NCBI GenBank assembly: GCA_036128775.1
Contig: JAYYPZ010000116.1
Span: 1-50,555, forward strand
Source of the DNA: Bacteroidota bacterium
GTDB taxonomy: Bacteria > Bacteroidota > Bacteroidia > Chitinophagales > UBA8649
Length of the DNA: 50,555 bases
Reading direction: 5' to 3'
In this document: positions 3,160 through 45,141 of the stretch, piece by piece
How the letters are laid out: each line of letters starts with the position of its first letter
Position numbering within the stretch: the first letter of the stretch is position 1
Position numbers and translations under genes: made by a program
The notes under the pieces: generated by a model
Told to the model about the DNA's origin: nothing
The model's input: the letters and a program-made list of their open reading frames with translations, nothing else
Database searches by the model: none

Positions 3160-4788
<1,629 letters not shown>

Positions 4789-4815
4789 TCTTTAATTTCA
4801 CGAAAAATTTATTCT

Positions 4816-6819
4816 ATGGATTCTTCTCGCATGCAATCAATTGGTTTGATTCTTTTGATGGGGCTTGGTTTCTTACTTGTACTTCAAATGAATGAGAAGG
4901 AACTTGAAGAAAACGAAAAACAAGCAGAAAAACAGGAAGAAGTACCTGCAACAGAGGAAGTAGCTGAAGAAGCCAGCAATACGTTAAGTCTTGTAGATAC
5001 CATGATCAATGACACCCTCATGGTGACTTTAGGAGATGATGAGCCGATAAGCTTTCATAATGCGGATTCCCTTGTGGGTGAAGATTTATCCAACTGGGCA
5101 GATTCCATCATAGACTCCCTATCAGCAGATTATCAAGCCTCATCAGTTACAGAAATGACATCATCTGAAGGTGTTGTTCAAGAAAAGGAGGAAGTAGTAT
5201 TTGAAGAGTCCTTTGCTGTCATCGAAAATGATGACCTCCGTGTTACCGTATCCTCAAAAGGTGGGCAAATAGACAACGTTGTTCTTAAGAATTATACAAA
5301 CCATCTTGGGAAACCTGTTCAAATTAGCAATGATCAATCGCGCTTTCGCTTTTCAATCGATACGAAGACCTTAGGCGAGTTTTCCACCAACGATGCGCCT
5401 TTCGAGCTCTCCGTCAGTGAAGACTCGTTATCCATTACAGCTAAGGCGATTATGCCAAAAGAAGCCAATAACGGAGGATTTACTATGGTCTTCCAACTTT
5501 CACCAACAGGCTATACGGTACAGCACAACGTCTTGTTTGATAATGGCGATAATGAGTTGTATGCCACCGATAACTTGAGAATGGACTGGCAACAGGTCAT
5601 GTTGAGTCAGGAAAAAGATATTTCTGAAGAACGTCGCCGTTCCTGGTTGTTATACAAAGAAAAGGACGAGAGCATGGAGCTTGTCAGCGATGGAGATACC
5701 GAAGACATGGAGTTTTCCTACGATTGGCTCAGCGCTAAACAACAGTTTTTCAATGTCACCCTGCGAGGAAGTAAAGGAACATCTTTTAAGGATGGAGAAC
5801 TCTCTCTTGACATTCCGGAAGCTGATGAGTCCATTGTAAAGGTGGTCACATTTGAAAACATTCAACTTGACTTTAGACGGGGAGCTGACTCTGTGGCATA
5901 CAATTTCGAATGGATTTTTGCACCGAATGACTATAGCTTAATGATGGGATATGGTCAAGATATGGAGCGGATTACTCGCCCAAAATTCTGGTTTGTCAAC
6001 TGGATGTTCAACTTCATTTTAGACCGCTTATTCACACCATTATTCGCATGGTTAGAGGGCATGAATCTAGGCTATGGACTGATCATTTTCATTATGACCG
6101 TGCTGATCAAAATGGCCCTGAGCCCATTGACCTTCAAAAGTTATCAGTCACAGGCTAAAATGCGCGTTCTAAAGCCTGAAATGGATGCCATAAAGGAAAA
6201 GTACGAAGGGGACCAGTCCAAGATTAGTCAGGCAACGATGGAGTTATATCGAAGAACTGGAGTAAATCCGATGAGTGGATGCTTGCCCATGGTCGTTCAA
6301 ATGCCATTTTTACTCGCGATGTTCTACTTCTTCCCTTCAGCAATCGAGCTTCGCGGGGAGAGTTTCTTATGGGCGAATGACCTTTCTACCTACGATGACT
6401 TGATTCAGTTTCCATTTACTATTCTTGGAAGTTCACACCTAAGTTTATTTACCCTCCTCTTTTCATTAAGTAGTTTGGGGACAGCCTGGGTTAATCTAAA
6501 GACCCAAGGCAATAACATGCAAGCTGGCATGGAGTTTATGAAGTATCTACCCTTCATCTTCCCTATTGTTATGCTCTTTATTTTCAATAGTTTTCCTGCA
6601 GGACTTACCTACTACTATTTCTTAAGTACCACGTTCACCTTAATTCAGCAATTAGTGATTAAACAATTCTTTGTGGACGAGGATAAGATCAGAGCACAGC
6701 TGATTGCTAAAAAAGCTAAGCCGCGTAAAAAAGGCGGATTCTGGGATCGCCTTCAAGAAGCGCAGAAGAAGCAAATGGAGGAGATGGAAAAGAAGAATAA
6801 AAAGGGTAAGAAAAAGTAA
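4816..6819 (+). CDS. yidC: Membrane protein insertase YidC
   Basis: N-terminal TM, periplasmic domain (SSKGG), GVNPMSGCLP, LWANDLS, GLTYYY; pyrG-yidC adjacency is typical of Bacteroidota. Confidence 0.95.
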   Translation: MDSSRMQSIGLILLMGLGFLLVLQMNEKELEENEKQAEKQEEVPATEEVAEEASNTLSLVDTMINDTLMVTLGDDEPISFHNADSLVGEDLSNWADSIIDSLSADYQASSVTEMTSSEGVVQEKEEVVFEESFAVIENDDLRVTVSSKGGQIDNVVLKNYTNHLGKPVQISNDQSRFRFSIDTKTLGEFSTNDAPFELSVSEDSLSITAKAIMPKEANNGGFTMVFQLSPTGYTVQHNVLFDNGDNELYATDNLRMDWQQVMLSQEKDISEERRRSWLLYKEKDESMELVSDGDTEDMEFSYDWLSAKQQFFNVTLRGSKGTSFKDGELSLDIPEADESIVKVVTFENIQLDFRRGADSVAYNFEWIFAPNDYSLMMGYGQDMERITRPKFWFVNWMFNFILDRLFTPLFAWLEGMNLGYGLIIFIMTVLIKMALSPLTFKSYQSQAKMRVLKPEMDAIKEKYEGDQSKISQATMELYRRTGVNPMSGCLPMVVQMPFLLAMFYFFPSAIELRGESFLWANDLSTYDDLIQFPFTILGSSHLSLFTLLFSLSSLGTAWVNLKTQGNNMQAGMEFMKYLPFIFPIVMLFIFNSFPAGLTYYYFLSTTFTLIQQLVIKQFFVDEDKIRAQLIAKKAKPRKKGGFWDRLQEAQKKQMEEMEKKNKKGKKK

Positions 6820-30367: not shown

Positions 30368-31228
30368 CTACACCTGGTTAGGATGCCATATGGTTTTCGT
30401 TTCCTGAAACCTTTCAATGTAATACGGAGACTGTCCCGTATCCTCGTTCCAATTTGTCCCCCTGTTAATTCGTACTCTTTTCAAATTCTCTACTGAAACC
30501 TTTTCAAGTTCTTGTATTTCTTCATCATGTTCTCCGCAATACGAGACAGCATTTACATCCATATGAGAGGCAAAATGATGAATCAGCTCTTTTCTTGTTC
30601 CTGTTAAAATATTCACGACGCCGTGAGGCACATCTGATGTGTTTAAGACTTCAGCAAAAGAAATACTGACCATCGGATTGTTTTCAGACGATAAAACGAC
30701 ACATGTATTGCCTCCAACAATGATTGGCGCAATCGTAGACACCAACCCTAACAATGCACTTTCATTCGAGGAGATTACGGAAACAACTCCCATAGGCTCC
30801 AATACAGAAAAATTAAAATGATGAGATGCCACCGGGTTAACTGAACTAAATATCTGTTGGAATTTGTCGCTCCAGCCAGCATAGTATATCAAGCGATCTA
30901 TACTTTGTTCCACCTCATCTTTTGCCTTTTGTTTTGACAAGCCCGTCATCATTAACTCATCGATGAATTGCGATTTCCGACCTTCTAACATCTCTGCCAC
31001 TCGATATAGAATCTGGCCCTTATTTAATGCAGAAGCACTTTGCCAAGATTTCTGTGCTTTTCTCGCCGCAACTACTGCATTTCTAAAGTCCTTTCTTGAA
31101 GAAAGACACATGTTCGCCAACAATTTTCCATTGTTGTCTTCGACCTTAAAATATCTTCCGGATTCCGTTCTTGGGAACTTACCTCCGATAAAGATTTTAT
31201 ATGTTTTTAATACATCTAATCTTTCCAT
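30368..31228 (-). CDS. Short aldehyde dehydrogenase-family protein lacking the catalytic domain
   Basis: KTYKIFIGGKFPRTESGR, GQILYRVAEMLEGR, GVVNILTG, NLKRV; no ELGG or catalytic Cys; 286 aa. Confidence 0.85.
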   Translation of the reverse strand: MERLDVLKTYKIFIGGKFPRTESGRYFKVEDNNGKLLANMCLSSRKDFRNAVVAARKAQKSWQSASALNKGQILYRVAEMLEGRKSQFIDELMMTGLSKQKAKDEVEQSIDRLIYYAGWSDKFQQIFSSVNPVASHHFNFSVLEPMGVVSVISSNESALLGLVSTIAPIIVGGNTCVVLSSENNPMVSISFAEVLNTSDVPHGVVNILTGTRKELIHHFASHMDVNAVSYCGEHDEEIQELEKVSVENLKRVRINRGTNWNEDTGQSPYYIERFQETKTIWHPNQV

Positions 31229-32682
31229 TATTCAACATTTAAATAAGAGATTAAACCATGTAGCCCGCCTTCTCTGCCAAACCCACTCTCTTTATATCCT
31301 CCAAAAGGAGAAGTCGAGTCAAACTTGTTATATGTGTTGGCCCAAACTACTCCTGCATTTAATTCTTGTGTAAGCTTAAATATTTTAGCTCCTTTCTCCG
31401 TCCAAACCCCAGCTGACAAACCAAAGGGTGTATTGTTTGCCTTCTCAATGACCTCATCAATTGTGCGAAACGTCTGAATGGCCAAAACGGGACCAAATAT
31501 CTCTTCCTGAACGATGGTATGCGATTGAGAAACATTTAGAAACAATGTTGGCGGACACCAGTTTCCTTTACTTGGAAGATTGCAAGCGGGCTGATAAATC
31601 TCACCGCCTTCTTCCTTACCTACTTTGATGTACTTATTAATTGTTTCTAATTGCTCCTTGGAATTGATCGCTCCAATGTCCGTGTTCTTGTCTAACGGGT
31701 CGCCAACAATTAAAGAAGACATTCTGTCTTTTAACTTATCAATTACACTACCCGCAACACTTTCTTGTACAAACAATCGCGATCCTGCACAACAGACATG
31801 TCCTTGGTTAAAAAAGATAGCATTGATAATTCCTTCAACTGCTTGGTCTATCGCCGCATCTTCGAAAATGATGTTCGCCCCTTTACCCCCAAGTTCGAGC
31901 GTCGATTTCTTTTGAGTCCCTACAATACTGTTTTGAATCAACTTACCGACCTGAGTAGAACCGGTAAAGGCAATTTTATCAATATCCGGATGGTTGACGA
32001 TCTCTGATCCTGTTTTCCCTGCTCCTGTTACAATATTCACTACTCCCTTAGGAAGACCGCTCTCCTGAATAACTTCAGCAAGCTTAAGCGCTGTCAAAGA
32101 AGTCGTCTCAGCCGGTTTTAAGACAACTGTATTACCACAAGCAATAGCTGGAGCAATTTTCCATGCTGCCATCAAAAGAGGAAAGTTCCAAGGGATAATC
32201 TGACCTGCAACGCCTATAGGTTTTGGGGTTTTGTTTGGAAAAGCATATTCCAATTTATCCGCCCAGCCGGCATAATAGAAGAAATGACTTGCCGCTAGAG
32301 GAATATCAACATCTCTCGATTCTCGAATAGGCTTGCCTCCATCAATACTTTCGATTATCGCAAACTCTTTTGCTCTCTCTTGAATCATTCGAGCAATTCG
32401 AAAAATGTATTTTGCTCTTTCTTTTGGCTCGATTTTCGACCAACTTGTAAACGCCTTTCTGGCCGATGCTACGGCTAAGTCCACATCTTTCTTGTTCGCC
32501 TCTGAAATACTTGCAATAACCTCTCCTGTGGCTGGGTTTATCGACTTAAAGTATTTCTTAGAATCTGGCTTTATGAATTCTCCATTTATGAATAAGTCAT
32601 ATTGTTCTTTTAACACAATGTGATCTGTATTCTCTGGAGCACTAGCATAACTCCAACTGCTATTTTGACTTGTCTCACTCAT
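31228..32682 (-). CDS. Aldehyde dehydrogenase
   Basis: PWNFPL, LKPAE, FTGST, LELGGK, NQGHVCCAGSR, EEIFGP, PFGGYKESG. Confidence 0.95.
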   Translation of the reverse strand: MSETSQNSSWSYASAPENTDHIVLKEQYDLFINGEFIKPDSKKYFKSINPATGEVIASISEANKKDVDLAVASARKAFTSWSKIEPKERAKYIFRIARMIQERAKEFAIIESIDGGKPIRESRDVDIPLAASHFFYYAGWADKLEYAFPNKTPKPIGVAGQIIPWNFPLLMAAWKIAPAIACGNTVVLKPAETTSLTALKLAEVIQESGLPKGVVNIVTGAGKTGSEIVNHPDIDKIAFTGSTQVGKLIQNSIVGTQKKSTLELGGKGANIIFEDAAIDQAVEGIINAIFFNQGHVCCAGSRLFVQESVAGSVIDKLKDRMSSLIVGDPLDKNTDIGAINSKEQLETINKYIKVGKEEGGEIYQPACNLPSKGNWCPPTLFLNVSQSHTIVQEEIFGPVLAIQTFRTIDEVIEKANNTPFGLSAGVWTEKGAKIFKLTQELNAGVVWANTYNKFDSTSPFGGYKESGFGREGGLHGLISYLNVE

Positions 32683-35896: not shown

Positions 35897-35987
35897 AAAG
35901 GAAAGGATTGGTCTAAAGATAGCTTTTAGAGACGGAGACATATACTATGTTGTATTATTTTAAGCGTTAGAACAGACGATTATTCCT

Positions 35988-36722
35988 ATGAAACCTATTC
36001 ACCTTCTTTTACTTGCACTACTGACCCTCGCTGTACAATGCAGTACGGATGATGATACAAACAACGGGAACGAAGGAGACTATGAGAGCTATCGGTATCC
36101 TCTGTGGACAGGGCTAATCGACTTAGGCTATAGCGTGGATTTTGTTGGAGATCAAGTGGATGAGGGAAGCTATGCTGATTATAATGGCCAACCCTTTGAC
36201 CGTGATCATGCAGGTATTGGAGGAATTGAGACAAGTGGGGTGCTCGAGCGACTCGATGAGATTGTAGCAGCCTCGGCTACACCAGATATCATCTTACTTG
36301 GCATTGGAGGAAACGATTTAACCGATGGTCAACAACCAGTTTCTACAGTGGTCGACAACATTGAGGTAATCATTATGGAATTGCGAGCAAGCTATCCAGA
36401 CGTTGAATTTTTGGTGGAACGGATTGCCCCAGCATCCGAATCTTTTATGACAGCAGAACTCAGCGACACCCTCCAATCTTTTTACCAAGAACTCGAAAGT
36501 CTTGTTACCAATCTATCCACTCCTCAGTCAGAAGTTGTGTTGGTTGATATGTCTACAGACTTTATCGAAAACTACTTTGCAGATGCTACGCATTACAATC
36601 AAGAAGGGGCAACATTTGTTGCAAATCAATATAAAGACGCTATTGTCCAGTTGATTCCTGCACCTCAGTCGATTACGCTTCTGCCGATTGGAGACTCTCG
36701 AGTAGAAGGCGCGCGATACTAA
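35988..36722 (+). CDS. SGNH/GDSL hydrolase lipoprotein, circularly permuted
   Basis: Lipobox AVQC; block II (HAGIGG), III (GIGGND) and V (DATHYN) come first; block I ITLLPIGDSRVEG is at the extreme C-terminus. Confidence 0.8.
   Translation: MKPIHLLLLALLTLAVQCSTDDDTNNGNEGDYESYRYPLWTGLIDLGYSVDFVGDQVDEGSYADYNGQPFDRDHAGIGGIETSGVLERLDEIVAASATPDIILLGIGGNDLTDGQQPVSTVVDNIEVIIMELRASYPDVEFLVERIAPASESFMTAELSDTLQSFYQELESLVTNLSTPQSEVVLVDMSTDFIENYFADATHYNQEGATFVANQYKDAIVQLIPAPQSITLLPIGDSRVEGARY
36459..36509 (+). repeat. Copy 1 of a 51-bp direct repeat (inside the SGNH gene)
   Basis: CTCAGCGACACCCTCCAATCTTTTTACCAAGAACTCGAAAGTCTTGTTACC; 48/51 identical to 37922-37972. Confidence 0.9.
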
Positions 36723-36731
36723 AGACAGTCT

Positions 36732-37880
36732 TTACTCTAAGAGGTAGGGCAAGGTCACATCACCCTCGTTGTGCAATACCTTAACGAAGTAGAGCCCTGT
36801 TGGTTGAACCATAGAAAGCGCTAGATTTCTTCCTTGGCCTACCTCAGAAGCCACTTGCTTACCCAAAAGATTATACACTTCTATTTGAAGGATGGACTGA
36901 GTGGAATGTACTGTAAAGGTTCCATTACTTGGATTAGGCTGCAAGGAAACTTTAGGTAAAGTAAGCGACGAAATCGAAGTAGATATAGTATCACATTCAA
37001 TCAAACCATTCATATTATATTTTGAAACAAAATTCCATACCTCAGATGTGGCATTAATATCTTGATTTGTAAAAGGTGAAAGTGGAGAAGGCCAATCATG
37101 TCCTCCGCCAGTTATTTTTAATTCTTCAACCGAAACACAGCCATCACCGTTGATCCATGAATAACGTTCAACAGAGCTTCCATCTGCTGTATTTATATCA
37201 GGAATTGGAGTTATAATTGGCAGGGCATCAGTATTATTATTGACTGCCCAAAAACTATCGATGGCAGCTACTGAGAAATATCCCCAACCATTTTGATCAT
37301 CGTATGGGTGAGTCCCATCCTCTGTTCCATTAATACTTTGTACAGCCGTTGGATGGTAAATATCACAAGATGAGAATGCGCCGAAAAAGGCCGCGCCAGC
37401 TACAGATGAAATTGCTGTTATTTTGTTATTTAACTGACATGCAAGTTCATATGAAAACATCCCACCAAGAGAATATCCACAAGCATAAATTCTCTCGGTA
37501 TCAATACTGTAATTAGTACTAATATCATCAATTAGAGCTTCAACAAAAAATATATCCTTGTGATCTGTTGGATCTTTGTGCAACCAATTTGTAGAATTTC
37601 CATCATTTGGGTCTTCTAGTGCCTGCGGATAAACAAGAATAAATCCAGCAGTATCTGAAATAGATCTAAAGTCTGCTTCATTATTCATAAAATCGTCAGC
37701 AAAACCAGAGCCTCCATGAAATGCTAACAATACGGGCACCGGGTTGTTTACGGAATAGCTTTGGGGTATATAGATTATATATTCTCTGTCATTGCCATCG
37801 TAGTTGATACTTTCCAAAGACTGTTGTTGTGAGAGCCCGATTAATGGAACAAACAACATTATGTTTATCATTCTTCTCAT
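36732..37880 (-). CDS. Secreted PHB-depolymerase/LpqC family esterase with T9SS type A CTD
   Basis: PVLLAFHGG, LVYPQ, GYSLGG, GGGHDWP; QPNPSNG...TGLYFVKV tail. Confidence 0.85.
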   Translation of the reverse strand: MRRMINIMLFVPLIGLSQQQSLESINYDGNDREYIIYIPQSYSVNNPVPVLLAFHGGSGFADDFMNNEADFRSISDTAGFILVYPQALEDPNDGNSTNWLHKDPTDHKDIFFVEALIDDISTNYSIDTERIYACGYSLGGMFSYELACQLNNKITAISSVAGAAFFGAFSSCDIYHPTAVQSINGTEDGTHPYDDQNGWGYFSVAAIDSFWAVNNNTDALPIITPIPDINTADGSSVERYSWINGDGCVSVEELKITGGGHDWPSPLSPFTNQDINATSEVWNFVSKYNMNGLIECDTISTSISSLTLPKVSLQPNPSNGTFTVHSTQSILQIEVYNLLGKQVASEVGQGRNLALSMVQPTGLYFVKVLHNEGDVTLPYLLE

Positions 37881-41060: not shown

Positions 41061-42569
41061 TTAACGAAGAGCATCCTGCCGAATCAAGTCAAACAAATGG
41101 GAGACGGTAACGACTTCTGTCGATTCATTCAATTTATTAATGCATTGCTCCACCTCCTCCTTGCCATACGACCAAACATGCACAGGAATTAAGGAAAAAG
41201 ACGGTCCTTCTTCACTTCTCGCTAAGCGATTTAGTCGCCGGGCTAATTGAGATGGCGTATTAAAACCACCCCAAAGGTTACTGTATCCATGGACAACCGG
41301 CTTGCCATACCGAAATTCGATCATACCCTCGCCTTTGGAATAGTTTTCATAATAGTAGAAAACAAGTCCTTCAATTGTTTCATGTTGCAACAGGCTGTCT
41401 ATACAAGGGCAATAAGGATCATTTCCAATAACGTTAAGAATTGTAAGCCCCATAGATTCCATTTCCATAGTTGTCTTTTCAACGTAGGCCTTGCACGATG
41501 GCAATACCTCAGGGAATACGTAAGCCCATCCACTTGGGGCTGCAATACAATCCATATCCTCTGTACCATTGTGCCAATTCTTGACTTTTGCACCAATAAA
41601 TGGCACATAGGAGGCTATAGATGGCGCAATAGTCCATGATAAGGGGTAGTTCTCTGAACGTCCGTTGTCTAGATATCTACCTTGGTAGATTAAATCATTT
41701 AAAATAAACTGAAGGTTATCTCCATCAGACATAAGAAAAGCTATATAGTCCTTTGTTGTATCTAAGGATTTCGTTTCTGTAGCCACCGGGTTATCGATGG
41801 AATTAAAGTCTGAAGGATATAATGCATCCAAGACCGACAAGTTTAACGCCCAATCCGCTGGAATTACCCCTACATCATACGAAGAAGCCATCCCGATCAA
41901 TTCACTTTCATGATAGCGACTCCATCCCAATGCTGCGGCTCCAGGATTTAATGCAGTAAACAACGTATCCATTAGTGGGTCCTCTAAATCCACTTCGTAG
42001 TAAAAAAGATTATCTCTAACCGCAAGATCAATCAGAAAGTGGGAGGATTTTTGAGGTTGAATTATAATACCCTCTTTTGATATGGAATCCTTTAACTCAA
42101 TCCAAACATCTGCCATAGACATTGTTCGGCAGTCCTTCACTAAAGGCAATCCTGCTTCAATAGCCACAGATTCCAACAATTCTGAAATAATGATGGAATG
42201 CAAGGGTCCAGCAAAACATGTGGCAGCATAGGAAGAATATGGCTTATCGCTATACAGAATGTATCCTTCTATTTGATCTTGAAATTCGTTTACCAAACCC
42301 ATTGGATAAAATAGATAACTTGAGTCCAAGGAAACAACTTCTTGTGACAGCATATCATGCAGCATTGACTCTACGCTTCTGCCACTCATCGAAAAGATTA
42401 TGGACGGATCATCCTTGGCCAAGAGACCTTGTAGACTCGCTATGGTCGAGGTTTCATCCTTGGACATGGTGGTCTCTTCGACGAGATATAGCGTTGACGG
42501 CAACTGGGCGAGACCAGATTGACTAAATAGAAGCAAGAAGCAATAAACAAGAATGCTAGGTCTAGCCAT
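41061..42569 (-). CDS. GxGYxYP family putative glycoside hydrolase
   Basis: SLQGL, IPADWALNLSVL, FLMSDGDNLQF, SWTIAPS, APSGWAYVFP, VHVWS. Confidence 0.75.
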   Translation of the reverse strand: MARPSILVYCFLLLFSQSGLAQLPSTLYLVEETTMSKDETSTIASLQGLLAKDDPSIIFSMSGRSVESMLHDMLSQEVVSLDSSYLFYPMGLVNEFQDQIEGYILYSDKPYSSYAATCFAGPLHSIIISELLESVAIEAGLPLVKDCRTMSMADVWIELKDSISKEGIIIQPQKSSHFLIDLAVRDNLFYYEVDLEDPLMDTLFTALNPGAAALGWSRYHESELIGMASSYDVGVIPADWALNLSVLDALYPSDFNSIDNPVATETKSLDTTKDYIAFLMSDGDNLQFILNDLIYQGRYLDNGRSENYPLSWTIAPSIASYVPFIGAKVKNWHNGTEDMDCIAAPSGWAYVFPEVLPSCKAYVEKTTMEMESMGLTILNVIGNDPYCPCIDSLLQHETIEGLVFYYYENYSKGEGMIEFRYGKPVVHGYSNLWGGFNTPSQLARRLNRLARSEEGPSFSLIPVHVWSYGKEEVEQCINKLNESTEVVTVSHLFDLIRQDALR

Positions 42570-42570
42570 G

Positions 42571-45141
42571 TTAGAAATCAATACGGAACCTCAAGTTTAC
42601 CCTGCGATTGGTAAGGTAGTTTGGCACGGCAAACTGTCCTAAGCCACCATTTCGAACATCAAGCCCTCTTACCCATAAATAGGATACTGCATTTTCAATA
42701 CCGAAAAGATTAAGCACCTCAAGACTAAGCCATGCATTTTTGATTGCCTTTTTTGCAATACCACGCTTTTTAACGCGCTGTTCGCGGTCATAGAGCCTTG
42801 CGCTAAATCCAATATCAAAGCGCTTATAGGTGGAAATACGGAAGACATCATTGTAGCGCTCGCCGTCCGGTGGTCCAAAGGGGAGCCCAGTGGCCACCAC
42901 AAGATTCATTTGAACTCTAAAAAATGGATACCTTGGAATGTAGTCTTGGAAACTCAGCGAAAAGGAAACCCTGCGATCTGTTGGCCTTGGAATAAATCCA
43001 GGATAAACCGTTGAAGTATCTGCCACAGTGATATCCTCAACAATTACACCATCCTCCTCTACATATTCCTTGTAATAATCAATAACCGTATAGCTATCGC
43101 CATTTATATCCTCCCGAGCATGCATATATCCCAACGTAACCCAACTTTCTAAGCCTTCAGCCAGCTGACCCGCTAATCGCAAATCAAGTCCTGCTGTATA
43201 GCCCCGTGCCTTGTTTTCCCCGAAATACCGAATCAATACATTATCAAACTCATAGGGCACAAGATCCCACATGTATTTGTAATAGGCTTCTGTAGTAAAC
43301 GCAAAATCTCGATCATCCCATGCTTTGAATCGATAGTCTAATCCCCATATGGCATGCACTGACTTTTGTGCCAATAGATTAGTATTGACTACACCTTGGA
43401 GGTTTCGCATCTCCCTGTAAAAAGGCGGTTGTGCATAGAGACCGGCTGCCCATGAGATTTTAAGCGTACGTCCGAGGCTATCTTTTCGCAAGGTAGGTTG
43501 TAGCTGAAACTGCGCTCGCGGACTAACCACTAACTCTTTGTTTACACTCCACCACTGACCTCTACACCCCAGTAACAAACTCGGATTAGCCCTTCCTTTT
43601 CCCTCCCAGCGATGCTGTACAAAGGCGGTTAATCGATGGCTTGATAAATCAACCGTAGAACGCAATTGGCTGTAGAGTAAGACAGAATCCACTGAGTACG
43701 GCAAGCTGTACCCTACACTATCCTGTCTCCCCCACTCACTAAGTCGATCTTGAATATTTTCATTCTTGTACGTTAATCCCCATCGAAGTGTTTGATTTGT
43801 CCAATAGGCATTTCCGCGATAGGCCGTCGAAAAAATCTCTGTATTGAGCTGGTTTCTTGCCCAATCATGGAATGTACCAGAACCCAGCGACAACCTTATT
43901 TCCCCTACATTCGACTGACTAGGATCGGTCTCGACCTCTCCCAATAAATAATCTCCAATCAAGTCAAAGGATTCATTTTCACGCATCGCATAATGACTTA
44001 CCATCCACTTCATATTGAGACGTGGTTTGGGATTATAAATTAAAGCAAGCCCATTCATCACATTTTGATACCGATCGTTTTCCTGCCCCGAATAATAGAC
44101 TTGGAACCTATTTTGCTGGTTGAACAAACCAAAATCGGTAACCCTATCTGTTGGCACAAAATAGAAACGATTTTTAGCGTACTGCCCTATCCACTCCAAT
44201 CGCCACTTAGGCTGTAACAAAGCACTAACGTAGTATTGAACGTCCGTGAATGAAGGGCTATATTGTCCATTTGTATTGGTTGATCCGAGGAGATATTGGG
44301 AGTTTTTATGGCGTATTCCAACACTCCACGCTAGTCGATGATTCAACCCAACATCCTGCACCATCAATGAACCACCAAGAAGACTGGTTTCAGCACTTGA
44401 ACGAAAGGCATTGGGTCTGTTGTATGTAACATCTAACACGGAAGCCATTTTATCTCCATATTTCGGAGCAAAACCACCTGCAGAAAAACTCACCTCGCGC
44501 ACCATATCTACATTTACAAAACTGAGTCCCTCCTGCTGCCCCGATCGAATAAGAAACGGTCGATACACTTCGAAATCATTGACATATACAAGGTTTTCAT
44601 CAAAATTTCCTCCACGAATGCTGTACGCCGTACTTAACTCATTATTCTTACTAAAACCTAATTCGCCCCTTAAAAAGTCAGAAACATCTGGAAAAGGATT
44701 GGGCAGTGATCGCTTCGACCCAATATCGATTATCGTGGTACTCACATCGGTGACCCCTTTTTCTCCTTGATCTCCTTCGATGACTACCGTGTCAATATTG
44801 GCTGCATTTTCTCCATAGGTTATTGATATAGCATCTAAGGCTGTGACGCCATTCCATTCCCACGTCGTATCACCTTCAAAAAGACTTTGTAACATGAGGA
44901 CTAATCGGTTAGGCTTTTCTGGTAGATCTAAACGAAAGACTCCTTGATTATCGGTAAATGTGGTGTTTGTAGTGTGCCTAGGGGCAGCAACAAGAATATC
45001 AGAAAGCGGCTTGCCATCATAAGCTTTGACCTCTCCTTCTATCGTGAATTGTCCATAAGACTCAATAGCCCCAAACAATGCTAAGCAGCCAAAGAATATG
45101 ACTGTACAAAGACTCATATCACCTCGGATATGACATCTCAT
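42571..45141 (-). CDS. TonB-dependent receptor-like outer-membrane protein
   Basis: NNELST.YSIRGGNFDENLVYVND, SGQQEGLSF, AGGFAPKYGDKMASVLD plug; beta-barrel ending in F. ATGA overlap with rpe; alternative start 45117. Confidence 0.88.
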   Translation of the reverse strand: MRCHIRGDMSLCTVIFFGCLALFGAIESYGQFTIEGEVKAYDGKPLSDILVAAPRHTTNTTFTDNQGVFRLDLPEKPNRLVLMLQSLFEGDTTWEWNGVTALDAISITYGENAANIDTVVIEGDQGEKGVTDVSTTIIDIGSKRSLPNPFPDVSDFLRGELGFSKNNELSTAYSIRGGNFDENLVYVNDFEVYRPFLIRSGQQEGLSFVNVDMVREVSFSAGGFAPKYGDKMASVLDVTYNRPNAFRSSAETSLLGGSLMVQDVGLNHRLAWSVGIRHKNSQYLLGSTNTNGQYSPSFTDVQYYVSALLQPKWRLEWIGQYAKNRFYFVPTDRVTDFGLFNQQNRFQVYYSGQENDRYQNVMNGLALIYNPKPRLNMKWMVSHYAMRENESFDLIGDYLLGEVETDPSQSNVGEIRLSLGSGTFHDWARNQLNTEIFSTAYRGNAYWTNQTLRWGLTYKNENIQDRLSEWGRQDSVGYSLPYSVDSVLLYSQLRSTVDLSSHRLTAFVQHRWEGKGRANPSLLLGCRGQWWSVNKELVVSPRAQFQLQPTLRKDSLGRTLKISWAAGLYAQPPFYREMRNLQGVVNTNLLAQKSVHAIWGLDYRFKAWDDRDFAFTTEAYYKYMWDLVPYEFDNVLIRYFGENKARGYTAGLDLRLAGQLAEGLESWVTLGYMHAREDINGDSYTVIDYYKEYVEEDGVIVEDITVADTSTVYPGFIPRPTDRRVSFSLSFQDYIPRYPFFRVQMNLVVATGLPFGPPDGERYNDVFRISTYKRFDIGFSARLYDREQRVKKRGIAKKAIKNAWLSLEVLNLFGIENAVSYLWVRGLDVRNGGLGQFAVPNYLTNRRVNLRFRIDF

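Follow-up and report, generated by a model that had tools for sequence, protein, structure and literature searches.

Hydrolases of the SGNH/GDSL type usually carry their conserved blocks in the order I-II-III-V, with the nucleophilic serine near the N-terminus. Can the strand bearing this serine lie at the other end of the chain in a natural enzyme? The question is raised by an open reading frame (ORF) on the forward strand of a 50,555-nucleotide stretch of DNA from a Bacteroidota bacterium (GenBank assembly GCA_036128775.1, contig JAYYPZ010000116.1; the whole stretch is referred to as the window). An earlier reading of the letters, here called the original prediction, had described the product as a circular permutant with new termini near the active-site serine. 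This description is supported by homologues, a docking prediction and bridging contigs, and we conclude that the gene very probably encodes a genuine, selected and foldable natural circular permutant of a CE3-like SGNH/GDSL serine esterase.

Block order in the protein and its homologues

The ORF (35988-36722) starts with ATG and encodes 244 amino acids without interruption; because the stop-to-stop frame comprises just 252 amino acids, no N-terminal extension is concealed upstream. In the product, labelled P0001 in the homologue sets, a hydrophobic signal sequence closes with Cys18, after which come STDDDTNNGNEG, DYESYRYPLW, DFVG...FDRD, HAGIGG (residues 74-79), GIGGND (105-110), DATH, IPAPQ and SITLLPIGDSRVEGARY, and the block order is II-III-V-I (G-N-H-S). 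The original prediction had let the mature part open at YESYRYPLW, and ..GDYESYRYPLW was indeed found after Cys18, with HAGIGG and GIGGND present; likewise, all catalytic residues lie in a single intact frame with the first strand at its end. The earlier coordinates were all confirmed, those of DATH (36582-36593), G235-D-S237 (36690-36698) and the C-terminal peptide I229..Y244, ITLLPIGDSRVEGARY (36672-36719), to the letter.

Profile matches place the protein in the SGNH superfamily and locate the break. Two Pfam models scored over their cut-offs, PF13472 with 46 bits and PF00657 with 45.6 bits, and no other Pfam family matched at E ≤ 1. Their alignments begin at profile positions 16 and 26, respectively, and block I is therefore absent from the N-terminus. 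Three canonical relatives examined as a control aligned from profile position 1-2, and three further permuted proteins started at 18-39 (PF13472) and 39-66 (PF00657). NCBIfam returned just a match to AxeC2 below threshold (E 0.13; 11.1 bits, the cut-off being 500). When the PDB was searched with a profile, the CE3 entries 5B5S (E 2.4e-19) and 2VPT (E 1.4e-17) were retrieved, with the next family at E 1e-07. The match to CtCes3 (2VPT) came in two pieces, profile 227-242 aligning to chain 3-18 (SKTIKIMPVGDSCTEG) and profile 23-219 to chain 14-194, which is a textbook permutation signature.

The order recurs among homologues, of which the first search listed 120 out of 149 at E ≤ 0.001 among 2032 candidates. 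A motif script sorted these and the query into 97 permuted, 19 canonical and 5 unclear sequences, and the unclear ones were settled by eye from their positions (P0084, with LPWGDS, as permuted; P0111, P0114, P0116 and P0117 as canonical). The GDS strand is C-terminal in 98 of the 121 sequences, N-terminal in 23 and present at both ends in none. A library of 50%-identity clusters yielded 3483 proteins at E ≤ 0.001, 59 of them at E ≤ 1e-30, and permuted forms make up 14 of the best 150 cluster representatives, the most distant of them sharing 33% identity with the query. When one genome per prokaryotic species was scanned, 241 relatives came up, with 19 permuted forms among the best 80 loci. Homologues sharing the order, as anticipated by the original prediction, thus exist in each of these searches, and its recurrence in the first-search sequences and the genome loci rules out a chance pattern. 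All 19 permuted loci belong to Bacteroidota metagenome-assembled genomes (MAGs) or single-cell genomes, whose record titles name Chitinophagales, Saprospiraceae, Lewinella, Sphingobacteriales, Crocinitomicaceae, Cryomorphaceae, Vicingaceae and Flavobacteriales; the cultured isolates among the best 80 loci (Lacinutrix, Aquimarina, Oceanihabitans) have canonical forms only. The public names of members are generic, for example 'GDSL-type esterase/lipase family protein'.

In an alignment of 23 sequences (A1), canonical members run from the Cys and a linker through ..ISILPLGDSRVEGNRP(D/N)(Y/F)ESYRYELW.. and end after the last helix, and permuted members run from the Cys through a short acidic linker to (G)YESYRYELW.. 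and continue past the last helix with ..ILPLGDSRVEGARP. It had been claimed that I.PLGDS..EG directly precedes SYRY.LW in this subfamily; canonical relatives do read ..ILPLGDSRVEGNRP(D/N)(Y/F)ESYRY.., with a Ser-to-S(YR) spacing of 11 in 43 of 47 sequences. In permuted sequences, the cut lies 7 residues beyond the serine (103 of 107), the chain restarts at its other end with x-Y-E-S, and a spacing of 35 separates His from Ser (104 of 107). A comparison of spacings between canonical and permuted forms indicates that the loop residues were all retained across the permutation. Four permuted proteins, P0129 (254 amino acids), P0132 (283 amino acids), P0157 and P0144, have 1-10 extra residues past the usual end (..EGNRPNAPDDLVLEL, ..GNRKKAKVN), and given these the C-terminal cut is not absolutely fixed.

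Residue conservation was read from A1 and from a second alignment of 99 sequences (A2; mean column identity 67%), which includes one canonical row, P0098. Cys18 is invariant in both, in permuted and canonical relatives alike, as are H74, G76, G78 and G79 of block II, G107, G108 and D110 of block III, and D199 and H202 of block V; N109 is fully conserved in A1 and almost so in A2. At the C-terminus, L232, P233, G235, D236, S237, R238, V239, E240, G241 and R243 are at least 90% conserved in A2. The SGNH catalytic set (G235-D-S237, G76, G107-G-N109-D, D199-A-T-H202) is complete, with every member invariant or at least 90% conserved. P0001 also has a putative calcium loop, D51-F-V-G54 ... D71-R-D73, which corresponds to the calcium-loop motif DFVGXnDXD described for CE3 enzymes in passages of PMC9487903. 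Within this region G54, D58, F70 and D71 are invariant in A1, the conservation of D51 is at least 90%, and relatives have either D or N at the position of the third Asp.

Predicted fold and proposed enzyme

An AlphaFold2 (AF2) model built from the 99-row alignment reached a mean predicted local distance difference test (pLDDT) of 81.9 and a predicted template modelling score of 0.80. DSSP assigned five strands (49-52, 101-105, 140-145, 183-187 and 228-235) and a helix at 205-222, and low confidence is confined to the signal peptide, the tether and the four residues at the very end, with pLDDT below 50 for residues 12-30. The best PDB matches of the model in Foldseek were 5B5S (E 5.9e-10, 26% identity), 5B5L and 2VPT; nearly all of the 38 matches at E ≤ 0.001 were SGNH hydrolases, with one AAA ATPase as the exception. 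VIA-align returned 198 chains at Z ≥ 8, headed by CE3 chains at Z 19.9, 19.7 and 17.8. Its alignment to 5B5L (Z 19.9, root-mean-square deviation 2.3 Å over 186 residues) pairs model 32-227 with chain 14-207 and leaves out only the template's first strand with Ser10. The model, the two structure searches and Pfam agree on an SGNH fold of three layers (alpha/beta/alpha) with five parallel strands.

Docking of the C-terminal strand was predicted with the chain split into residues 31-214 and 215-244, using a user-supplied alignment and three controls. The split chain scored 0.95, compared with 0.01 for the best control; among solved complexes 116 of 157 attain this value, as do 2 of 215 mismatched pairs, a calibration that holds only roughly given the user-supplied alignment. 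Three runs agreed in at least 99% of contacts, with a partner pLDDT of at least 90. The lowest-error contacts join 230-234 to 99-105 (beta3) and 51-53 (beta2), and the predicted interface further includes 74-80 (block II), 107-109 (block III), 201-203 (His202) and 31-36, the new N-terminal segment. The SGNH sheet has the strand order 2-1-3-4-5, and contacts with beta2 and beta3 therefore place the C-terminal strand in the beta1 slot. Its entry into the central sheet, part of the original prediction, is thus borne out in prediction both by strand 228-235 of the AF2 model and by the split-chain position between 51-53 and 99-105.

Based on these findings, we propose that a 17-residue piece comprising beta1 and the GDS was relocated to the C-terminus behind a 5-residue linker. 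The chain would be opened 7 residues past the serine (E240-G-A-R-Y at one end, ..D-Y-E-S-Y-R36 at the other), within the Glu-to-Arg loop that borders the CE3 pocket, and the relocated strand would fill the central beta1 slot between beta2 and beta3. With the strand in this slot, Ser237 is predicted to meet His202/Asp199, Gly76 and Asn109, and ordinary SGNH catalysis would therefore be expected: Ser237 would act as the nucleophile, activated by His202 and Asp199, and the oxyanion hole would be formed by the backbone amides of Ser237 and Gly76 together with the Asn109 side chain. The permutation would open the Glu-to-Arg loop, which, according to passages of PMC9487903, flanks the pocket in CtCes3-1 (Glu47-Arg58) and TcAE206 (Glu13-Arg18) and is credited with setting the pocket volume and the accessibility of the serine. 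In addition, the tether would be shifted from the beginning of beta1, on the sheet side remote from the active site, to the beginning of alpha1, on the same side as the active site.

The signal peptide, the invariant Cys and the acidic stretch suggest that the protein is most likely lipid-anchored and probably surface-exposed. Residue -1 to Cys18 is Gln in P0001, which is unusual for a lipobox. The residues after the Cys are C-S-T-D-D-D in P0001 and C-K-K-G-D-D/E-D in 53 of 107 permuted homologues. Bacteroidetes surface lipoprotein export signals of the forms K-(D/E)2, SDDDD and SDDFE are given in part of PMC5080379, and the stretch in P0001 resembles such signals at the level of sequence.

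The protein is likely to be active as an acetyl esterase. In the sections of PMC9487903 on CE3, acetyl esterases of this family act on p-nitrophenyl and naphthyl acetates and on acetylated xylan or oligosaccharides derived from it, and acetyl esters on oligo- or polysaccharides would be the most likely substrates of P0001. That it acts on acetylated glycans at the cell surface is a proposal for which we see even chances. More tentatively, and on balance doubtfully, we speculate that the G-N-H-S clade is the first natural SGNH hydrolase of this kind to be described, that it is young (40-47% identity to canonical forms), and that the permutation is adaptive: an opened pocket loop and a tether on the active-site face would turn the enzyme towards the surface and towards bulkier or surface-held acetylated glycans. 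In a bolder version of this idea, the same cut would have been reached more than once.

Origin of the order and competing explanations

The permuted form would have originated by tandem duplication or two-domain fusion; the first strand would then have been lost, together with all that lay beyond the first strand of the second copy. This duplication-then-truncation route fits the colinearity of P0001 with a segment that crosses the junction of two-domain relatives: residues 23-237 align with 139-358 of the 571-residue P0131 (32% identity, E 4e-30), a part made up of core 1, the linker between the domains and domain 2's first strand. Further two-domain relatives are P0179, P0235 and P0271. Their spacing from block V to the next block I is 35-39, versus 33 in P0001 by the same measure. 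Unlike P0001, they are full duplications in which both active sites are complete; they belong to the GDSITQ/GNSITQ type, are about 30-34% identical, and are not sister to the permuted clade in trees. Among 353 domain matches, six were flagged with a strand on both sides, of which P0131, P0179 and P0235 are true two-domain proteins; P0241, P0197 and P0249 were judged to be regex false positives from the flanks. A search for longer homologues gave the single protein P0122, a canonical SGNH domain with a beta-lactamase domain, and no tandem form. Head-to-tail canonical paralogues on the same strand were seen at L059 (3050-3832 and 3833-4612, abutting frames) and L040 (2459-3259 and 3956-4714), and such neighbours are possible raw material for a fusion. 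The permuted form most likely arose once, as suggested by an identical cut point and linker length and by the better score of a constrained tree (see below), and then spread among marine Bacteroidota. Of five other genomes in the window's genus, four have the gene, in one case truncated by a contig end, and no close homologue was found in the 10 other family genomes or 25 order genomes searched, which gave three weak matches only. This patchy distribution suggests lateral spread among marine Bacteroidota or many losses.

Several points weigh against our interpretation. The docking rests on prediction and may partly mirror the programs' memory of solved canonical SGNH folds. Block I of P0001 is G-D-S-R-V, without the GXSXT that part of PMC9487903 gives for characterised CE3 enzymes, and among permuted sequences the conservation of Val239 is at least 90%. 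Contigs of two RNA libraries cover 36002-36719 (X15, flanks uncovered) and 35946-36905 (X16), which is at most a weak hint of transcription since DNA can occur in such libraries. The window neighbours do not form a polysaccharide utilisation locus. Concerning the route, no strand-core-strand(-stop) intermediate was present among the 353 domain matches at ≥ 80% coverage, and no two-domain protein of the GDSRVEG subfamily in the longer-homologue search or the domain matches. Finally, a single origin is not demonstrated by the trees: a free IQ-TREE search placed P0001 among 8 canonical rows (support 98/88) in a tree that requires three order changes.

This last result bears on the strongest competing explanation, which is that the permuted order arose repeatedly or reverted, either because the window's lineage (genus g1) was permuted independently of the large Flavobacteriales-type clade, at the same cut, one that the structure allows, or because a permuted core was overwritten by recombination with a canonical paralogue. 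Trees were built on core columns after dropping rows with less than 90% domain coverage, below 100 bits or at least 80% identical to a kept row; FastTree used 203 rows, and IQ-TREE used 81 rows (all 26 permuted representatives and the 55 nearest of 177 non-permuted ones) and 194 columns, with the strand columns excluded. Besides the free tree, several observations would fit repeated origin: the permuted rows formed one clade in 0 of 200 bootstrap trees, P0123 fell outside the main permuted clade in both programs, and P0001 shares LLGIGGNDLTDGQQ with the canonical Saprospiraceae-type P0100, P0104 and P0106, where other permuted sequences have LLCIGGNDLL.G. P0001 is also similarly close to its best canonical matches (44-47% identity) and to other permuted sequences (45-50%), and adjacent canonical paralogues in L040 and L059 could supply the material. 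However, constraining the 26 permuted rows to one clade gave a log-likelihood 8.17 above that of the free tree (p-AU 0.632), a solution that the free search had missed, and we therefore did not read polyphyly from the free tree. FastTree placed 24 of the 26 permuted rows, P0001 included, in a single pure clade. The branch of P0001 is long (1.05), and P0001, P0123 and the main clade are alike in the cut 7 residues past the serine and the His-to-Ser spacing of 35. Taken together, we consider repeated origin or reversion unlikely and favour the single origin.

If the strand is permuted, it could still be donated to a neighbouring subunit in a strand-swapped dimer or oligomer. Strand swapping is common where a terminal strand is loosely tethered; both new termini and the short 5-residue linker lie at the fold edge, and the split-chain prediction shows that docking in trans is possible. 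Against this, the single-chain AF2 model places the strand intramolecularly, with pLDDT values of 96 for residues 221-230 and 80 for 231-240. In flavodoxin-like folds the end of the last helix adjoins the start of beta1, and five residues are therefore sufficient within one chain. A swapped arrangement thus seems very unlikely, and we retain the intramolecular permutant.

We hold it to be just as improbable that P0001 is an O-acyltransferase acting on a cell-surface polymer, like OatA SGNH domains or AlgX/AlgJ/PatB1. This view draws on passages of PMC9487903 in which the SaOatA C-domain is structurally closest to the CE3 enzymes CtCes3-1 and TcAE206, and the other permuted SGNH-like families in the portions of the literature searched are transferases. 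Yet no AT3/MBOAT partner was found among the window ORFs scanned or among 33 neighbour ORFs chosen from 11 of the 19 permuted loci. Block III (Asn) and block V (DxxH) have the canonical form, in contrast to AlgX/PatB1, and the neighbours in other genomes are glycoside hydrolases.

The C-terminal GDS strand could also be left over from a truncated second domain, making the gene a dead or decaying remnant of a tandem pair with an incomplete active site. Block I is indeed unseen by the Pfam models, and the architecture equals a segment cut from a tandem repeat. The within-genus comparison speaks against decay. Between the window and three congeneric genomes (91-97% protein identity, six pairs), the ratio of nonsynonymous to synonymous polymorphism (pN/pS) over the whole gene was 0.07-0.20, and in each of the pairs codons 227-244 differed by synonymous changes alone (1-5, with 0 nonsynonymous); the relocated C-terminal segment is under purifying selection. 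Of the 25 variant places listed inside the ORF, 22 are third codon positions by hand count, with 30 further places outside that listing. The strand is among the most conserved parts of the 99 sequences, the triad and oxyanion residues are all invariant or nearly so, and the architecture persists to 33% identity and in 19 species-level genomes. Without this strand, moreover, the sheet would lack its central beta1. A decaying remnant is therefore scarcely credible, even less so than the preceding alternatives.

Misassembly was rejected because homologues share the order and separate contigs cross the junction. Fourteen DNA runs hold at least half of the stretch's sampled words; the runs belong to seven studies of marine or seawater samples, and two of these studies are possibly the window's source. 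The contigs of four runs were used for the check, X4 and X5 (DNA) and X15 and X16 (RNA libraries). DNA contig X5 (36284-36823) spans the last helix, linker, strand, stop codon and the start of the next gene, and RNA-library contig X16 (36250-36905) spans the same junction from helix to stop; no indels, joints or loose ends were reported there. X4 has no listed contig across 36623-36660 and is uninformative either way. The bridging contigs and the synonymous-only change exclude misassembly and decay as far as the data reach, and the misassembly that the original prediction had named as a possible refutation did not materialise.

Features, neighbourhood and comparison with known systems

Features of the proposed permuted esterase gene in the window
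Feature	Position	Strand	Basis
Whole gene, permuted SGNH/GDSL (CE3-like) hydrolase, 244 amino acids	35988..36722 (including stop codon)	+	Sequence, Pfam, homologue search, alignment
Signal peptide ending at Cys18 (codon 36039-36041), presumed lipidation site	35988..36041	+	Invariance of Cys18; lipidation presumed
Acidic tether STDDDTNNGNEG, residues 19-30, new mature N-terminus; resembles a Bacteroidota lipoprotein export signal	36042..36077	+	Sequence, after-Cys motifs, consensus in part of PMC5080379
Fold core, residues 31-222: helix alpha1 (YESYRY..), strands beta2-beta5, last helix 205-222	36078..36653	+	AF2 model, VIA-align to 5B5L
DFVG...FDRD loop, residues 51-73, corresponding to the calcium-loop motif DFVGXnDXD of CE3	36138..36206	+	Sequence; motif in passages of PMC9487903
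Block II HAGIGG, residues 74-79, oxyanion-hole Gly region	36207..36224	+	Conservation, predicted interface
Block III GGND, residues 107-110, with Asn109	36306..36317	+	Conservation, predicted interface
Block V DATH, with D199 and H202	36582..36593	+	Conservation, predicted interface
Linker IPAPQ, residues 223-227, from the former C-terminal helix to the relocated strand	36654..36668	+	DSSP (helix 205-222, strand 228-235); His-to-Ser spacing
Relocated beta1 and block I SITLLPIGDSRVEGARY, residues 228-244; predicted nucleophile Ser237 (codon 36696-36698)	36669..36719	+	Conservation, synonymous-only change, predicted contacts

The esterase gene is solitary, with one divergent and one convergent neighbour, and genes in its vicinity encode a type I phosphodiesterase, an S51 peptidase, an alpha/beta esterase with a type IX secretion system (T9SS) tail and a nitroreductase. 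Beside permuted homologues in other genomes, we found genes for glycoside hydrolases of families GH92 (L017, L020, L023) and GH3 (L020), a GH5 with CBM6/CBM35 and a T9SS tail (L009), a CBM6/35 protein with a T9SS tail (L005) and, at L002, a pair of GH16 genes with T9SS tails. Downstream of the esterase, two species of one genus differ: the window has a gene for a 382-residue alpha/beta esterase (Esterase_PHB) with a T9SS tail (36732-37880, reverse strand), and L002 has one for a 597-residue GH16 protein with an F5/8 type C domain plus a T9SS tail (3977-5767, reverse strand), followed by a second such gene. The two ORFs upstream are equal in length in both (329 and 404 amino acids), a synteny judged from ORF lengths and Pfam.

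Two further regions of the window were recorded. Adjoining aldehyde dehydrogenase ORFs lie at 30368-31228 and 31228-32682 (reverse strand), one of full length (484 amino acids); the other, of 286 amino acids, matches profile positions 11-237 of 461 only and may be a truncated duplicate. A putative GxGYxYP glycoside hydrolase (41061-42581, reverse strand) adjoins an 856-residue ORF with a weak match to a TonB-dependent receptor plug (42571-45141, reverse strand), and the pair, about 4 kb away from the esterase, may form a small unit for glycan uptake.

With more than 100 permuted sequences and both canonical and tandem-domain relatives, the family offers a clean natural circular permutation in one of the largest esterase superfamilies. 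The duplication-truncation route and the effects of connectivity on folding, stability and the pocket thereby become directly testable, and if the adaptive reading is true, permuted and canonical forms give a natural before-and-after pair. Because the Pfam GDSL models miss block I, automatic annotation could score the catalytic serine as absent and esterase surveys may miscount, a risk that concerns carbohydrate esterases in marine Bacteroidota. Protein engineers permute esterases and lipases to change active-site access; a natural cut point beside the nucleophile, evidently tolerated, is of use to such work. All 19 genomes that hold the permuted form are from uncultured marine Bacteroidota, and the enzyme may bear on the surface deacetylation of algal or other glycans by small-genome members of this group.

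Among the closest known systems are canonical GDSRVEG lipoproteins from marine Bacteroidota, such as P0100, P0104, P0116 (Lacinutrix), P0117 (Oceanihabitans) and the Aquimarina loci L037 and L040. They share 37-47% core identity, the lipobox Cys and the block sequences with P0001. In contrast to the permuted forms, in which the two motifs are split, LPLGDSRVEG.RP and.YESYRY are contiguous; the strand is N-terminal, and the Cys-to-Ser tether, mostly about 18-34 residues, enters at the start of beta1, not alpha1. A large canonical-order subfamily has LGASRVEG for LGDSRVEG, with the GDS Asp replaced by Ala and the Ser kept (proteins P0151, P0165, P0166, P0170, P0172-P0175 and others; loci L026, L027, L032, L043, L044, L046, L052-L054, L056, L057, L061, L065, L067, L070, L072, L075-L078, L080 and L081). 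Other canonical members are fused to further domains, such as P0122 (716 amino acids, with a beta-lactamase-family domain) and P0142, P0151 and P0162 (800-812 amino acids), and one lies within a very long non-Bacteroidota protein, the 1417-residue L048 ORF of a Chloroflexota MAG.

Permuted SGNH folds as such are already known, and WssI is reportedly grouped with the permuted AlgX/AlgJ SGNH-like O-acetyltransferases. Passages of PMC9487903 and PMC5697884 describe AlgX/AlgJ (AlgX_N-like) and PatB1 (DHHW) as permuted SGNH-like O-acetyltransferases in which the triad geometry is kept. Their order is H-S-G-N, with the cut between blocks III and V, whereas P0001 is G-N-H-S, cut just past block I. 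The motifs of AlgX/PatB1 have diverged (GTSYS/KDS, Tyr for the block III Asn, DXH/DHHW), while GDS, Asn and DxxH are canonical in P0001. AlgX/AlgJ/PatB1 are old families classed outside the true SGNH hydrolases, with 11-15% identity to SpOatA-C; canonical-order relatives of the permuted P0001 clade, in contrast, are still about 40-47% identical to it. No G-N-H-S order of an SGNH protein was described in the literature searched, whose coverage excluded subscription journals, and this cut with intact motifs is apparently undescribed.

The nearest solved structures, by sequence as well as by fold, are the CE3 enzymes TcAE206 (5B5S/5B5L) and CtCes3-1 (2VPT); CtCes3 bears two tandem esterase domains, according to a passage of PMC9487903. 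P0001 and CE3 are alike in blocks II, III and V, in the DFVG..DXD motif and in the strand followed by GDS..EG (KIMPVGDSCTEG in CtCes3 versus LLPIGDSRVEG). Unlike CE3, P0001 has block I at the C-terminus with the active-site Glu-to-Arg loop cut open, GDSRV in place of GXSXT and a lipoprotein signal in place of a dockerin or CBM1, and the two are only about 21-26% identical. P0001 is thus a CE3-like SGNH esterase by fold and motifs that departs from the block order by which the family is defined.

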